Shown one piece after another: positions 3,958-56,550 of a stretch of 64,000 nt of DNA. Each line of letters begins with the position of its first letter. Position 1 is the stretch's first letter. Both the position numbers and the translations under genes were made by a program. The notes under the pieces are model-generated. The model made no database searches. It was not told the DNA's origin and saw nothing but the letters and a program-made list of their open reading frames with translations. The DNA is from Alphaproteobacteria bacterium (GTDB lineage: Bacteria > Pseudomonadota > Alphaproteobacteria > GCA-2731375): the NCBI GenBank assembly GCA_046582635.1, contig JAYGEA010000056.1, forward strand, positions 957-64,956. Reading direction: 5' to 3'.

Positions 3958-5250
3958 TCAAGCTTGAAATGCTTTAGGCACGGAGAAGCGGAAGACCGAG
4001 CCCTGGCCAAGGGTACTTTCAACCTGGATTTCGCTGCCGTGGGCGGCGGCGAATTCACTGCAGATCTGCAGCCCCAGGCCGGTGCCGGGTTCGCCATGGG
4101 TGCCGGATTTTGATTTCTCGGCGGTGAATTCGAACAAGCGCCGCACATGCGCGTCATCCATGCCAACACCATTATCGGCGACGGATCTTTCGACCCGGCC
4201 GTTATCAAGTTGCCGGCTTTGCACATCCACGACGCCGTCCTGATTGGTGAACTTGATCGCGTTCGATATGAGATTGCGCAGCACGGCTTCGACCATGTCC
4301 TGGTCAACGGTAACCATGTCGTCGGACAGGTCGGTATTGATGGTAATACCCTTTTCCGCAGCGACTTCACGTTGAAGTTCGGCCACGCGCCCGATCAACG
4401 GGCCCAACATGACGTCCGCGTCGGAAAACGTTCGGTCGCCCATCTGGCCGCGCGACCAGCGCAGCAGATTGTCCACCAATTGCAGCAAACGCCCGCCGCT
4501 GCGGTTGATTTCCCGGGCATATTCCCCCAGTTCCCGCCGGGTGGCGTGCTCGGCGTGATCGGCGATCAATTGCGCGAAGCCCAGCATGGTGTTGAATGGG
4601 CTGCGCAAATCATGGGCAATAATCGAGAACATTTTGTCCTTTGTCAGATTTGATTGCGCCAGTGCATCGCGCTGCGCCTCGATCTCGGCGGCGGCCCGGC
4701 GCTGTTCCGTGACATCATTGACCGTGACCACGCGGCCGCCGTCGGGCAGATCCCGAGCGCGAATTTCATAGAATTGATCACCCTTCAGGCGCAATTCGCT
4801 TCGCAGTTCCTGACCCTTCTGGATTTCTGACATCCGGGCTTTTATCAACTGCTCCGGATCAATCGGACCATAGTCGCCACGACGGGCGACATAAGCGAGC
4901 AATTCCTGCCAGTTCACGCCGACCTGCATCAGATTATCGGGCAGGTCCAGGATCGCCTGGAACGGATAATTCCAGGCAAATAGGCGATGGTCCGTATCAA
5001 ACGCGGCAACGCCTTGGGGCAGATTTTCCAAAATTTCACGCAGCAGATGCTCGGCGCTGCCATGATGCACCCCTTCTATCTTGGGCCGGGTTTGCGGCGA
5101 TCCATTGCGGGAGGTGGCGCGGGAGGTGGCGTTCGGCTCCGATGAACCGGAATCAATAGAGATGGAATCGACAAAGGCGCCCCTACCGTCGCCCGGGGAA
5201 ACCGGCAACGGGGTCAGCGTTCGCGATGTATTTTGGCCCCCTCTAGGCAT
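3958..5250 (-). CDS. PAS-domain sensor histidine kinase (soluble, orphan)
   Basis: H-box HDLRSPFNTMLGFAQLI and a C-terminal HATPase_c (DNGVGMD, GTGLGLQI). PAS-like region LENLPQGVAAFD. No transmembrane segments and no adjacent response regulator. The N-terminus is S/P-rich, so the true start is uncertain. Confidence 0.75.
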   Translation of the reverse strand: MPRGGQNTSRTLTPLPVSPGDGRGAFVDSISIDSGSSEPNATSRATSRNGSPQTRPKIEGVHHGSAEHLLREILENLPQGVAAFDTDHRLFAWNYPFQAILDLPDNLMQVGVNWQELLAYVARRGDYGPIDPEQLIKARMSEIQKGQELRSELRLKGDQFYEIRARDLPDGGRVVTVNDVTEQRRAAAEIEAQRDALAQSNLTKDKMFSIIAHDLRSPFNTMLGFAQLIADHAEHATRRELGEYAREINRSGGRLLQLVDNLLRWSRGQMGDRTFSDADVMLGPLIGRVAELQREVAAEKGITINTDLSDDMVTVDQDMVEAVLRNLISNAIKFTNQDGVVDVQSRQLDNGRVERSVADNGVGMDDAHVRRLFEFTAEKSKSGTHGEPGTGLGLQICSEFAAAHGSEIQVESTLGQGSVFRFSVPKAFQA

Positions 5251-17977: not shown

Positions 17978-19719
17978 CCACCCCCAAGACGCCCGGCGGC
18001 GCGCCCCATCTGATCGGCAGCAAGGCCCAGGCCATACAGACCGGCCGCACGCGGTTATTGACCGTGGCCCTGGTCTTTGCCGTGTGCTTCTTTGTTCTGG
18101 CCGGGCGCTTGGTTGAGTTAACGGTCATTCGGGAGCCGGGCAAGACCCTGACCTTTGTTCCCGCCGCGCCGACTATATCCACGGCCGGGCGGGCCGATAT
18201 TCTGGACCGCAACGGTATTCTACTGGCGACAAACCTGATGACCGCCTCCCTCTACGCCGATGCCAGGGCCGTGCCCGACGGTGCCAAGGCGGCCCAACGG
18301 CTGGTCAAGGTGCTGCCGGGATTAAGCCCCGCCACCGTGCGTGAGCGGCTGGCCACGGGCCGCGCCTTCGTCTGGCTGAAACGTAACCTAACGCCGTCGC
18401 AACAGCGGGCGGTCAATGATCTGGGCATTCCGGGCCTGCATTTCCGCGATGAACAGCGCCGCCTGTATCCCCATGGCGCCTTGGAATCCCACGTGCTCGG
18501 GTTCACGGACGTGGATGGCAACGGCATTTCCGGCATTGAAAAATTCTTCGATCAGGCCATGCGCGACCGTGGCCCTCAAGGCCGGGCCCTGCAATTGTCC
18601 CTCGATGCCCGCGTACAGTACGTCCTGCGCGATGAATTGATGGTGGCCATGACGCGCTTCCGGGCGGCGGGTGCCGCCGGACTGGTGATGGATGCCAATA
18701 ACGGCGAAATTCTGGCCCTGATCTCCCTGCCGGATTTCGATCCCAATCATCCCACGGCGGCGCCCGCGTTGTCCCGCTTCAACCGCGCCACCAAGGGGGT
18801 CTATGAACTTGGTTCCGTCTTCAAGGTTCTGACCGTGGCCATGGCCCTGGACAGCGGCACAACCAAGCTGCGCGGCGGCTATGACGCCACCAAGCCGATC
18901 CGGGTGGCGGGCTTTTCCATTCGCGACAGTCACGCCAAGCGGCGTTGGCTGTCAGTGCCGGAAATTCTGATCTATTCCTCTAACATCGGCGCCGCCAAAA
19001 TGGCCATGGACCTGGGCCGCGACGGCCAGCGCAAATACCTTGATCGTTTTGGTCTGTTGAGCCGGCTGTCTTTGGAACTGCCCGAGGTCGGCGCCCCCAT
19101 CAGCCCGGCCCGTTGGGGCGATCTTTCCACCATGACCGCCGCTTATGGTCATGGCCTGGCGGTCTCGCCCGTACAGTTCGCCTCCGCCTTTGGGGCCATG
19201 GTCAATGGCGGCGTCCTGATGCCCGCCACCCTGATCAAGCGGCAACCGGGCGAGCGCGCCTTGGGCGTGCAGGTGATCAGCGCGCGGACCTCGAACCAAA
19301 TGCGCCGGCTGCTTCGCGCCGTGGTGGTAAAAGGCACCGGGCGCAAGGCCCAGGTGCCGGGCTATCTGGTCGGCGGAAAAACCGGCACGGCGGAAAAGGC
19401 GGGCGTCGGCGGCTACCGGCGCAAGGCCCTGATCTCGTCATTCGTCGCGGCCTTTCCCATGACCAAACCAAGATACGTGGTCTATCTGCTGCTGGATGAA
19501 CCCCGGGGCGATGCCAAGACCCTCGGTAACGCCGGGGGCGGTTACACGGCCGCGCCACTGGTGGGCCGCGTGATAAGGCAAATTGGTCCGATCCTCGGTG
19601 TTCGGCCCGTCGATGAAACGGCGGCGGCCGTGCGCCAGGACATGGCGATGCCCCTATTTAGTCGGAAGCAGTTTAGTCGGAAGTCATTCACGCGGAAGCG
19701 GACCAGTGCGGTTAATTGA
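17974..19719 (+). CDS. ftsI: Peptidoglycan D,D-transpeptidase FtsI (PBP3)
   Basis: 581 aa with PBP dimerisation and transpeptidase domains (SVFK, SSN, KTGT motifs). ATGA overlap with ftsL. Confidence 0.9.
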   Translation: MTTPKTPGGAPHLIGSKAQAIQTGRTRLLTVALVFAVCFFVLAGRLVELTVIREPGKTLTFVPAAPTISTAGRADILDRNGILLATNLMTASLYADARAVPDGAKAAQRLVKVLPGLSPATVRERLATGRAFVWLKRNLTPSQQRAVNDLGIPGLHFRDEQRRLYPHGALESHVLGFTDVDGNGISGIEKFFDQAMRDRGPQGRALQLSLDARVQYVLRDELMVAMTRFRAAGAAGLVMDANNGEILALISLPDFDPNHPTAAPALSRFNRATKGVYELGSVFKVLTVAMALDSGTTKLRGGYDATKPIRVAGFSIRDSHAKRRWLSVPEILIYSSNIGAAKMAMDLGRDGQRKYLDRFGLLSRLSLELPEVGAPISPARWGDLSTMTAAYGHGLAVSPVQFASAFGAMVNGGVLMPATLIKRQPGERALGVQVISARTSNQMRRLLRAVVVKGTGRKAQVPGYLVGGKTGTAEKAGVGGYRRKALISSFVAAFPMTKPRYVVYLLLDEPRGDAKTLGNAGGGYTAAPLVGRVIRQIGPILGVRPVDETAAAVRQDMAMPLFSRKQFSRKSFTRKRTSAVN

Positions 19720-50083: not shown

Positions 50084-52684
50084 ATGGATTTTGAAAAGTA
50101 CACGGAACGCAGCCGTGGTTTCGTGCAGACGGCCCAAACCCTGGCGCAACGGGCCGGGCATCAGCAATTCACCCCGCAACATCTGCTCAAGGTCCTGCTC
50201 GACGATGACGAGGGCATGGCCACCGCGCTGATCGCGGCGGCGGGGGGCGATGGCGCCCTGGCCCGTCAGCTCAACGAGGATGCACTGGCGAAACTGCCAA
50301 AAGTGGAAGGCAGCGGTGCGGGACAGCTTTATATGGCGCCCGAAACCGGGCGGCTTTTTGAACAGGCCGAGGATATTGCCGATAAAGCCGGCGACAGCTA
50401 TGTCACGGCGGAACGTCTGATCCTCGCCCTGGCTCTGGCCACCTCCACCCCGGCGGCCGCCGCGCTGGGAAAAGCCGGCCTGACGCCGCAGAAACTGAAC
50501 AGCGCCATCAACGATTTGCGCAAGGGCCGCACGGCCGACAGCGCCACGGCGGAAAACGCCTATGACGCCCTGAAGAAATACGCCCGCGACCTGACCGAGG
50601 CGGCGCGGGAGGGCAAGCTGGATCCGGTGATTGGCCGGGACGAGGAAATCCGCCGTACGGTGCAGGTGCTCTCGCGCCGGACCAAGAACAATCCCGTACT
50701 GATCGGCGAACCCGGCGTGGGTAAAACGGCCATTGTCGAGGGTCTGGCCATTCGCATTATCAACGGCGATGTGCCCGAAAGTCTGCAGAACAAAAGCCTG
50801 CTGGTCCTCGACCTGGGCGCCCTGATCGCGGGGGCCAAATTTCGCGGCGAGTTCGAGGAGCGGTTGAAGGCCGTACTTTCGGAGGTTGAGGCGGCGGCGG
50901 GCGAAATCGTCCTGTTCATTGACGAATTGCACACCCTTGTGGGCACCGGCGCGGCGGAGGGCAGCATGGATGCCTCCAACCTGTTGAAGCCGGCCCTGGC
51001 GCGGGGCGAGCTGCATTGCGTCGGGGCCACGACCCTGGATGAATACCGCAAGCATATTGAAAAGGATGCCGCCCTGGCGCGCCGCTTCCAACCGGTCATG
51101 GTGCTGGAGCCGAGCGTGGAAGACACCATTTCCATCCTGCGCGGCCTGAACGAGAAGTATGAATTGCACCACGGCGTGCGCATCTCCGACGGCGCCCTGG
51201 TGGCCGCCGCGACACTGTCCAACCGCTACATCGCGGATCGTTTCCTGCCCGACAAGGCAATTGATCTGATGGACGAGGCGGCCAGCCGTATCCGCATGGA
51301 AGTGGATTCCAAGCCGGAGGAAATTGACGAGCTGGACCGGCGCATCATCCAGTTGAAGATCGAGCGCGAGGCCCTGAAGAAAGAAGATGACGATGCCTCG
51401 GCCGAGCGTCTGGGAAAACTGCAGAGCGAACTGGCCGATCTGGAAAGCCGCTCGACCGCGCTGACCGCCGCCTGGCAGGGGGAAAAAGATAAACTCAACG
51501 AGGCCCAGGATCTCAAGGAACAGCTTGAGCATGCCCGCATGGAGGCCGAGGCGGCCCAACGCCAGGGCGATCTGGGCCGAGCTTCGGAGCTGACCTATGG
51601 CTTCATTCCGGACCTGAACAAGCGTATAGCCGAGGCCGAGTCCATCGGCGCAAATGGCGCGGGACACATGCTGCGCGAAGTGGTGGGCGAGGAAGACATC
51701 GCCGCCGTGGTGGCGCGGTGGACCGGCATTCCGGTGGAGAAAATGCTGGCCGGCGAGCGTGACAAGCTCCTCGCCATGGAACAGCGCCTGGGCGAGCGCG
51801 TGATCGGCCAGGGGGAGGCCTTGGCCGCCGTCTCCAACGCCGTGCGCCGGGCCCGGGCCGGCTTGCAGGACCCTTCCCGGCCCATTGGATCGTTTCTGTT
51901 TCTGGGGCCCACCGGCGTCGGCAAGACCGAATTATGCAAGGCCCTGGCGGAATTTCTGTTTGATGACGAGGGGGCCATGACCCGCATCGATATGTCGGAA
52001 TATATGGAGAAGCACGCCGTGGCCCGCCTGATCGGCGCGCTGCCCGGATACGTGGGCTATGACGAGGGCGGCGCCCTGACGGAAGCCGTGCGCCGCCGGC
52101 CCTTTCAGGTCATATTGTTCGACGAGGTGGAAAAGGCCCACGGCGATGTCTTCAACGTATTATTGCAGGTGCTGGACGACGGCCGCATGACCGACGGCCA
52201 GGGCCGCACGGTGGATTTCACCAATTCCATCATCGTGCTGACCTCCAACCTGGGCGCCGAACATCTTGCCGCCCTGGGCGAGGATGAAGACTCGGACGCC
52301 GCCCGCGACAGCGTCATGGCCATGGTACAGGCGCATTTCAGGCCTGAATTCCTCAACCGCCTGGACGAGACCCTGTTGTTCCACCGCCTGGCCCGGGAAC
52401 ACATGGGCAGTATCGTCGATATCCAGCTGCGCCACCTCACGGCGCTTTTGGCCGACCGGCAATTGACCCTGTCCCTGGACGCCCCGGCCCGCGACTGGCT
52501 GGCCAAGGCCGGTTATGACCGGGTCTACGGCGCCCGCCCCCTGAAGCGGGTGATCCAACGGCAATTGCAGAACCCCCTGGCGAGCCTGATTTTGGAGGGC
52601 GCCATCACGGATGGCGAGACTATCAATGTTTCGGCCACCGATGGCGGCTTGACCATTAACGACAGGCTGGTGGCGGCGGCATAG
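50084..52684 (+). CDS. clpB: ATP-dependent chaperone ClpB
   Basis: 866 aa. Two AAA+ modules (GEPGVGKT; GPTGVGKT), a coiled-coil middle domain and the ClpB N-domain. Confidence 0.95.
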
Positions 52685-52735: not shown

Positions 52736-54026
52736 TTAGGCTGTTTGATCTTGGGATCGCTGCGCCAACAGCCGCGCGGCGACGATTGCCGCCAAGGCCA
52801 AAAGCGCGAACAGGGCGCTGAGAATAAAACCATGGCCGGCAGCTCTAAATCCAGCAGCCAGCCGAACAGGACGGAGGCGATCAAAACCCCTATCGAATAG
52901 CCGACGAAGACAAAGCCAAATACCTTGCCGGGTTCCCCCGGCGGAATGACGGCGCGGATCATCAAATCCCGTGGCGGCAGAATGGCGCCGAGGCCGAGGC
53001 CGCTGACAACCATGATGGCAATTAACAGAGGCGGCGAAGTCGGCGCGAACGCGGCTAACATCGTTGCCACCGCCGCCAGACCCAGGGCGCCCGCCGCCGT
53101 GATCAAATGTCGCCCGAAACGATCGGCAATAACACCGGCCAGCAGGATGCCGCCGACCACGCCGAACAAATGGCCGGTCAGGGCGGCGCTGGCCAGATCC
53201 AAATTTAGGCCATGCAGGTTTTTCAACCCCGTGATGGTGAATGCCAACAGTCCGTCGCTGGCCATGCCGTAGAGAATATTGAAACCCAGGAACAACAAGA
53301 TCGGCGCGGTCAACAGCAGACGCAACCCGGATGGCGCGGCGCCACCCCCCCCGGCGCCAAGGCCGGCGGCCGGGCATCCCGGTCACCCAGAACGCTGTAT
53401 CGCGATGCCACCAGCAACAACGCCAATAGGCCCGCTGTTCCCGACACGATCAGGGCGGTGCGCCAATCGAACAATTCCGCCAGCGCCAATATGGCCAGGG
53501 GCGCACAAGCCCCGCCCAGGAAGCCGGAAAAGGTGTGGTTGGAATAGGCCTGGCCCAAGCGGCTTTCATGAATGATGTTGGACAGAATGGCATAGTCGGC
53601 CGGGTGAAAGACGCTGTTGCCAAGGCCAGCAATGACCGCGAACAGCAACAACATCCAATACTGATCGGCAAATCCCATCAGCAAGATAGCCACGGCATTC
53701 AATCCCAGGCCGCACAGCAGAACCCGGCGCGGGCCCAGGCTGTCAACCAGAAAGCCCACCGGTGCCTGGACGATGCCGCCCAGCAAACCATAGGCCATCA
53801 TGGCCATGCCTAGTTCCATATAGCTGACACCGAATTCAGCCTTCAGCAGCGGAAACAGCGGCGGCAGGACCAGGGCATAGAAATGGCTCAGGTAATGCCC
53901 GATGCCGATAAGGCCCAATACCCACCGCTCGCACGCCCGCGGCGCCTCGTCGGGCGCTTGGCGTCCAATACGGTCAACCAGAGTGGTCACGCTAACTTCC
54001 TTTACAACAGGCGGGGTAGATATCAA
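52736..54026 (-). pseudogene. MFS transporter, disrupted by two frameshifts (one at a G8 homopolymer, 53345-53352)
   Basis: An MFS-like N-terminal half (53310-54026) and C-terminal half sit in different frames. The final TM helix is in a third frame. Either a pseudogene or homopolymer sequencing errors. Confidence 0.55.
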
Positions 54027-54092
54027 TAAACCGGCGTCGTCGTCGCGTTCAACAGGCCCTCAACAGAGGTTTTACGGGCGTTTCATATCGTA

Positions 54093-54206
54093 ATGTGCAA
54101 TCTCCAGCTGGAGAAGCATAGTATTCGGATTAATGAGCAATGGCGCATCTGTTTTGTTTGGTTTGACGGTGATGTTTGGGATGTCGAAATTGTCGACTAC
54201 CATTGA
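54093..54206 (+). pseudogene. higB: Truncated higB (RelE/ParE-superfamily toxin) remnant, C-terminal ~37 codons only
   Basis: Translation ...LQLEKHSIRINEQWRICFVWFDGDVWDVEIVDYH* matches the HigB C-terminus. The N-terminal half is missing. Ends 11 nt before higA. Confidence 0.55.
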
Positions 54207-54217
54207 GGAGCAATCAA

Positions 54218-54570
54218 ATGACAATCAAACGTGAAGACCTCCAGAACGGTACGGTTGATGTATCCGACGTTGCCACGGGCCGCCGTTTGCCGACTGTTCA
54301 TCCCGGCGAAATTCTGCGCGACGAGTTCCTCAAGCCCTTGGATATCAGCGTTTACAAGCTCGCCAATGCCATCAATGTGCCGCGTTCGCGGGCCAACGAC
54401 ATTGTCCTAGGCCGCAGATCCGTAACCACGGATACGGCATTGCGTCTGGGCCGCTATTTTGGCACTACCGCTGAGTTTTGGATCAATTTGCAAACAAGCC
54501 ATGATCTTGATGTGGCGGAGCGGACCTCACGCAAGAAGATAGAACGGGAAATCACGCCCCTCTCCGTCGC

Positions 54571-54574
<4 letters not shown>
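54218..54574 (+). CDS. higA: HigA family addiction-module antitoxin (HTH_XRE)
   Basis: HigA-like blocks [70 protein letters not shown] ribosome-binding site. Lower GC than its neighbours. Confidence 0.8.

Positions 54575-56550
<1,976 letters not shown>

Follow-up and report, generated by a model that had tools for sequence, protein, structure and literature searches.

The window, that is, the whole 64-kb stretch of DNA that was analysed, contains the remains of a toxin–antitoxin module. The toxin gene, higB, is reduced to a 3' remnant on the plus strand (54114..54206), which consists of codons 64–93 and the TGA stop, residues 1–63 being absent. It is followed on the same strand by higA (54218..54574), which codes for an intact antitoxin of 118 amino acids with an XRE-type HTH. 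On the other side of the remnant lies an MFS transporter gene (52736..53992, minus strand), which is divergent from higB and frameshifted; both of its halves match the Pfam domain MFS_1. Two further genes are useful as synteny anchors. On the left, clpB (50084..52684, plus strand), delimited from the list of open reading frames and from DNA alignments, encodes a ClpB-type chaperone, whose orthologue in L171 (an assembly of the sister species described below) has the Pfam domains Clp_N, two AAA and ClpB_D2-small. On the right, an acetoacetyl-CoA-synthetase-like AMP-binding gene (acs-like, 54571..56550, minus strand, Pfam ACAS_N and AMP-binding) is convergent with higA, and the stop codons of the two genes overlap by 4 nt.

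The toxin remnant, the antitoxin and their expression signals

The plus-strand frame that ends at 54206 reads ...KHSIRINEQWRICFVWFDGDVWDVEIVDYH or, more fully, TGVVVAFNRPSTEVLRAFHIVMCNLQLEKHSIRINEQWRICFVWFDGDVWDVEIVDYH. Its last 31 residues match the Pfam family HigB-like_toxin (PF05015, RelE/ParE superfamily), and the match is confined to positions 62–91 of the 91 of the profile (E 2e-4); since two thirds of the domain are gone and the match is incomplete, the score of 22.2 bits falls short of the gathering score (27). The remnant is therefore not a HigB in the sense of PF05015, a full-length domain of about 91–93 residues that scores above the gathering threshold. A custom profile, made from 44 full-length HigB that adjoin related HigA genes, aligns with the remnant over positions 63–93 of 93 (E 4e-16). 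Using tblastn, the full-length HigB of three syntenic relatives (L011, L012 and L014) match the window with residues 64–93 at 54114–54203 (E 1e-11 to 5e-16), and there is no second match with E < 0.04 in the 64 kb; residues 1–63 were not found in any frame on either strand of the whole window.

The initial annotation had described the frame ending at 54206 as an unmistakable HigB C-terminus, and Pfam, the custom profile and tblastn all bear this out, the searches with full-length HigB matching the C-terminal third alone. The N-terminal loss that it reported is real, but tblastn and the profiles give its size as 63 of 93 residues, not about 55. The truncation also survives the search for a complete or N-terminal higB in another frame of the window, since tblastn detects none.

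The list of open reading frames, which was produced mechanically, contains a 37-aa ORF (54093..54206, plus strand) that begins with an ATG and holds the higB remnant. Inspection of the sequence upstream of the ATG at 54093 reveals nothing that resembles a Shine-Dalgarno sequence, and the ORF is probably untranslated. An Asp-Tyr-His motif is conserved at the C-terminus of the HigB whose structures are solved, and has a catalytic role in P. vulgaris HigB. The motif is present in the remnant (...EIVDYH*), as it is in GraT (6f8s_B) and in P. vulgaris HigB (4mct_B); by itself it is not sufficient to make an enzyme. The promoter, the operator and codons 1–63 of higB are deleted, and therefore the toxin is dead: it has neither promoter nor start codon, and the N-terminal two-thirds of its RelE-type fold are missing.

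The antitoxin, on the contrary, is complete. It scores 106.7 bits with the HigA equivalog TIGR02607 (NCBIfam, cut-off 47.7, profile positions 4–80 of 81), which makes it a member of the HigA family, and 26.7 bits with HTH_3 (PF01381, cut-off 23). Direct reading of the sequence gives a ribosome-binding site, GAGGAG (54205..54210, plus strand), which is located 7 nt before the ATG and overlaps the higB stop; the sequence TTGAGGAGCAATCAAATG at this site is common to the window and L011. The earlier description of an intact downstream HigA with a ribosome-binding site is thus confirmed. The protein is 91% identical to the HigA of L011, whose partner HigB is intact, and by this likeness to an antitoxin that is paired with a toxin it may be able to neutralise HigB and to bind DNA.

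The comparison of higA between the window and L011 gives dN 0.044 and dS 0.173, a ratio of about 0.25. When L012 and L014 serve as outgroups to assign the codon changes, 1 non-synonymous and 5 synonymous changes fall on the window branch, and 4 and 5 on the L011 branch. Such a pattern fits continued purifying selection, but the numbers are low and the window branch is partly older than the deletion.

As for the expression of higA, a scan with the sigma-70 consensus finds no promoter-like sequence in 53900–54700. With relaxed settings, the matches near higA reach 8 of 12 positions at best and all lie within the higB remnant. At some higBA loci the higA promoter may be inside higB, a point for which the higBA literature we searched gave no confirmation. 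Over 24 diverse full-length higB, the conservation of synonymous sites is 0.70 in codons 64–93 versus 0.71 in codons 1–63 (p = 0.44). This lack of excess conservation means that there is no family-wide sign of an internal promoter, an idea that we discarded on this basis, and suggests that higA may be silent. No known RNA family was detected within 53800–54700.

The 121-bp spacer between the start of the MFS gene and the higB remnant (53993..54113, no strand assigned) is presumably the 5' region of the MFS gene. When it is aligned locally with the promoters and the 5' parts of higB in L011, L012 and L014, it scores no better than shuffled sequences do, which agrees with the initial statement that nothing HigB-like precedes the remnant; the homology between the DNA of the window and that of L011, L012 and L014 starts only at about 54115–54117. 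One stretch of the spacer, CGTTTCATATCGTAATGT, was considered as a match to the L012 operator and rejected, its score being below the mean of the shuffles.

Upstream of higB, all three relatives have TTGACA and a palindrome, which is ACAGTACGTACTGT in L011 and L014 and a close variant of it in L012. This palindrome looks like the HigA operator of this subfamily, a candidate suggested by its sequence and position. A second half-site (GTACG/GTACT) is seen after the TTGACA-overlapping ACAGTACGTACTGT in L011 (3660–3695), L012 (3672–3707) and L014 (3672–3708). The palindrome is absent at the window locus. The only match to it in the 64 kb, at 18615, differs at 2 positions and is no more than chance would give (19 of 100 shuffled sequences yield one or more), and we do not retain it as an operator copy. 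The locus thus lacks two features of a functional type II higBA module: an intact toxin gene directly upstream of the antitoxin and, in front of higB, a promoter whose palindromic HigA operator serves for autoregulation; of the toxin gene, 30 codons are left.

The locus in related genomes and in the population

A scan for HigA, with one genome per species, returned 80 relatives. In three of them (L011, L012 and L014), higA has the convergent acs-like gene downstream, as in the window. The identities of HigA and Acs to those of the window are 91 and 94% in L011, 81 and 86% in L012, and 76 and 86% in L014. All three have a complete HigB of 93–94 amino acids at the syntenic site, which shows by comparison that the toxin of the window was inactivated by a deletion, as the initial annotation had supposed. 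L011 is a sister species (about 91% DNA identity to the window) that is represented by four assemblies: the other three, L171, L172 and L173, are 97–99% identical to L011 and have the same arrangement, with an intact higB. The closest HigA clusters that are not identical to that of the window (P0002–P0004) all belong to this species. In its four assemblies, a tandem duplication of about 12 bp (GTTGACTACCATCGTTGACCACCAT; L011 3960–3990) is observed at the 3' end of higB, where it shifts the stop codon and widens the spacer between higB and higA.

At least four species-level lineages, with DNA identities of 76–91%, have the module beside this acs-like gene. The proposal that higBA was acquired horizontally does not hold for any recent event. 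The G+C content on which the initial annotation commented is indeed lower in the module (0.52 over 54030–54574, with 0.43 in the 37-aa ORF and 0.55 in higA) than in the window as a whole (0.63). In the relatives, higB and higA have 0.52–0.62 versus 0.60–0.61 for their loci; the low G+C is a lasting feature of the module.

The left side of the module differs between the relatives. In L012, higBA comes straight after clpB, without an MFS gene. The L011 clade has, between clpB and the higBA promoter, an 88-bp segment from the interior of the MFS gene (L011 3536–3623, also present in L171, L172 and L173), which corresponds to 53704–53791 of the window and is 89–91% identical to it. The junction of this scrap on the clpB side has a 9-bp microhomology (CCCGGGCCG / CCCAGGCCG), as expected for a deletion between short repeats. 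A scan of metagenomes with the HigB of L011 retrieved no intermediate genome in which the MFS gene and higB are both intact, the nearest HigB having 77% identity.

The exact HigA protein of the window is recorded on 19 contigs, ten of which were compared. These are independent assemblies (JGI, ENA and Logan) of different samples. They are 99.3–99.9% identical to the window, and the junction between the spacer and the higB remnant is the same in all ten; over 53900–54600, there are at most 3 substitutions and no gaps. The truncated arrangement therefore appears to be fixed in the sampled population, with the reservation that the contigs were chosen by their exact HigA; for the same reason, the identity of their HigA is not independent evidence of constraint.

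The neighbouring MFS gene had been described as frameshifted, and so it is, with two frameshifts rather than one. Comparison of indels with contigs L005–L010 places them in a run of C (53345–53352) and in a run of A (52826–52829). The C run has eight residues in the window, L005, L008 and L010, and nine in L007, while L006 and L009 have a different allele that is in frame. The A run has four residues in the window and three of the contigs, and five in L006. Among these six contigs, L006 is the only one that encodes the intact MFS product of 418 amino acids. The MFS gene may be either a polymorphic, decaying pseudogene or a gene whose slippage-prone tracts turn it on and off.

Order of events and alternative explanations

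We propose that the locus is what remains of an old chromosomal type II higBA module, in which a deletion left a dead toxin next to an intact higA; as a whole, this explanation is very probable. The ancestral locus would have begun with clpB and the oppositely oriented MFS gene; after an intergenic region came the promoter and operator of higBA, then higB and higA, and finally the acs-like gene, again in the opposite orientation. In the lineage of the window, one or more deletions would have removed part of the divergent intergenic region, the promoter, the palindromic operator and codons 1–63 of higB. In the lineage of L011, it is nearly all of the MFS gene that would have been deleted, while higBA was kept. 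The L011 clade retains a scrap of the MFS gene beside an intact higB, and it is therefore most likely that the MFS gene and an intact higBA were both present in the common ancestor of the two species; since no intermediate with both genes intact was found, this ancestral state rests on parsimony. The two sister lineages have thus most likely decayed in opposite ways, a case of reciprocal gene decay.

In the window, higA has survived as an intact gene, together with a ribosome-binding site that falls within the very end of higB. Low-level expression of higA may persist, driven by a weak promoter in the remnant or just upstream of it. HigA would then be either a harmless leftover under residual purifying selection, or a protein that acts in trans, by repressing other promoters that carry the HigA palindrome or by neutralising HigB toxins brought in by mobile elements.

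Another hypothesis is that the 3' piece of higB is itself under selection, because it provides higA with an internal promoter or with other signals needed for expression, or because the 37-aa peptide is functional. We consider this unlikely. The state of higB was scored at the 75 related HigA loci that have sufficient upstream sequence: 51 are intact, 5 are frameshifted, 7 are truncated at the 5' end, 2 are altered at the 3' end, and 10 have no detectable HigB. In all seven truncations, which are independent, the 3' end is preserved and the breakpoint falls within profile positions 48–76, as would be expected if this end were useful. The overlap of the higA ribosome-binding site with the higB stop, the location of the promoter-like matches near higA exclusively inside the remnant, and the fact that the remnant is free of stops and frameshifts, with 0 non-synonymous versus 2 synonymous changes on the window branch, point in the same direction. 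However, the loci were found via HigA, so that deletions reaching into the ribosome-binding site could not be sampled, and at ten of the related HigA loci no HigB remnant is detected. Codons 64–93 have no excess of synonymous-site conservation across the relatives, and the TTGACG hexamer formed by the Phe-Asp-Gly codons is specific to the window and L011, being absent in L012 and L014. As regards the peptide, most of the fold is absent from the 37-aa ORF, and no ribosome-binding site precedes it.

A somewhat more doubtful idea is that the lone HigA has been co-opted, either as a trans repressor of genes that bear the palindrome or as an anti-addiction factor against higBA modules of plasmids or phages. 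If this were true, the repeated preservation of the higB 3' end in independent truncations would reflect selection for the expression signals of higA. The initial annotation had put forward, in a similar way, that HigA was kept as an XRE-type regulator, which is a hypothesis; the cognate operator has been deleted. A precedent exists in Pseudomonas aeruginosa, where, according to the account of Guo et al. (2019) given in PMC6987408, HigA represses mvfR and pel in trans through copies of the palindrome. This trans regulator is a close structural relative of the HigA of the window. Unlike in P. aeruginosa, there is no target palindrome near the window locus, and a trans role is to be taken as hypothetical.

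The remnant could also have been produced by an insertion rather than by a deletion, if the MFS gene and its upstream region had inserted into higB and severed the promoter and the first 63 codons from the rest. The absence of the MFS gene in L012, where clpB is followed by higBA, indicates that this gene was gained at some point in this lineage, and in the window it is the 5' region of the MFS gene that abuts the breakpoint in higB. We nevertheless regard such an insertion as highly improbable, since in L011 and L171–L173 the 88-bp MFS fragment occupies the same position while higB is intact and has its promoter: before the truncation, the MFS gene thus stood beside a higBA that was still intact. 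Moreover, no transposase and no inverted or direct repeats were found flanking the MFS gene; the search for signatures of mobile elements around this gene and higBA gave short chance repeats only, which were rejected.

Last, that the truncation is an artefact of assembly or sequencing, or that an entire higB is present in a different frame or at some other place, has a negligible probability: sequencing error can make homopolymer lengths vary between assemblies, as those of the adjoining MFS gene do, but what is missing here is about 190 bp of coding sequence and the promoter, not one base, the junction recurs without gaps in the ten independently assembled contigs, and tblastn finds residues 1–63 nowhere in the window.

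Known systems and the loss of HigB at other loci

The locus can be summed up as a chromosomal higBA module that has decayed: the toxin is dead, the antitoxin is an intact orphan, and the adjoining MFS gene is decaying as well. Its closest counterparts among characterised systems are the chromosomal GraTA of Pseudomonas putida and HigBA of P. aeruginosa (PA4674 family), in which the toxin gene is likewise first and the antitoxin gene second. The intact HigB of the L011 species matches GraT over its full length (6f8s_B, E 4.5e-26). The closest solved structures to the HigA of the window are those of P. aeruginosa HigA (7csv and 6jpi, E about 4e-25), GraA (6f8s_A) giving E 5e-17; unlike these structures, the HigA of the window has an N-terminal extension of about 24 residues beyond their coverage. 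The relatives of the window have, like GraTA and HigBA, a palindromic operator that overlaps the promoter. The window departs from these systems in that only the last 30 codons of the toxin remain and both promoter and operator are deleted.

Orphan antitoxins that derive from degraded type II loci are abundant in a survey of Klebsiella pneumoniae (Horesh et al. 2020, PMC7192599), where the roles proposed for them are those of a remnant, of an anti-addiction module or of a partner in cross-interactions with other toxins. Like these orphans, the antitoxin of the window stays in its original non-toxin context, the toxin being missing or degraded. In this case, unlike theirs, syntenic sister genomes allow the deletion to be retraced, and the autoregulatory operator has also been removed.

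This is a common form of gene decay, and since orphan antitoxins are already well described, it will not surprise those who work on toxin–antitoxin systems. Beyond annotation, its significance is small: the 37-aa ORF should be annotated as a higB pseudogene remnant, higA as an orphan antitoxin and the MFS gene as a polymorphic pseudogene. As an example of reciprocal decay in two sister lineages, the locus is neat and datable, and it illustrates the loss of HigB with retention of HigA, an intact adjoining HigB being missing at about one third of the 75 related loci.

Two of the 51 higB that were scored as intact (L043 and L077, which end at about 3980–3990) are of full length except for a stop two codons early (..VD*H). 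This removes the conserved C-terminal Tyr-His and may be another route to the inactivation of the toxin. At two loci, L045 (3512–4348) and L060 (1997–2689), higB and higA form one continuous open frame, an apparent toxin–antitoxin fusion through the loss of the higB stop codon.
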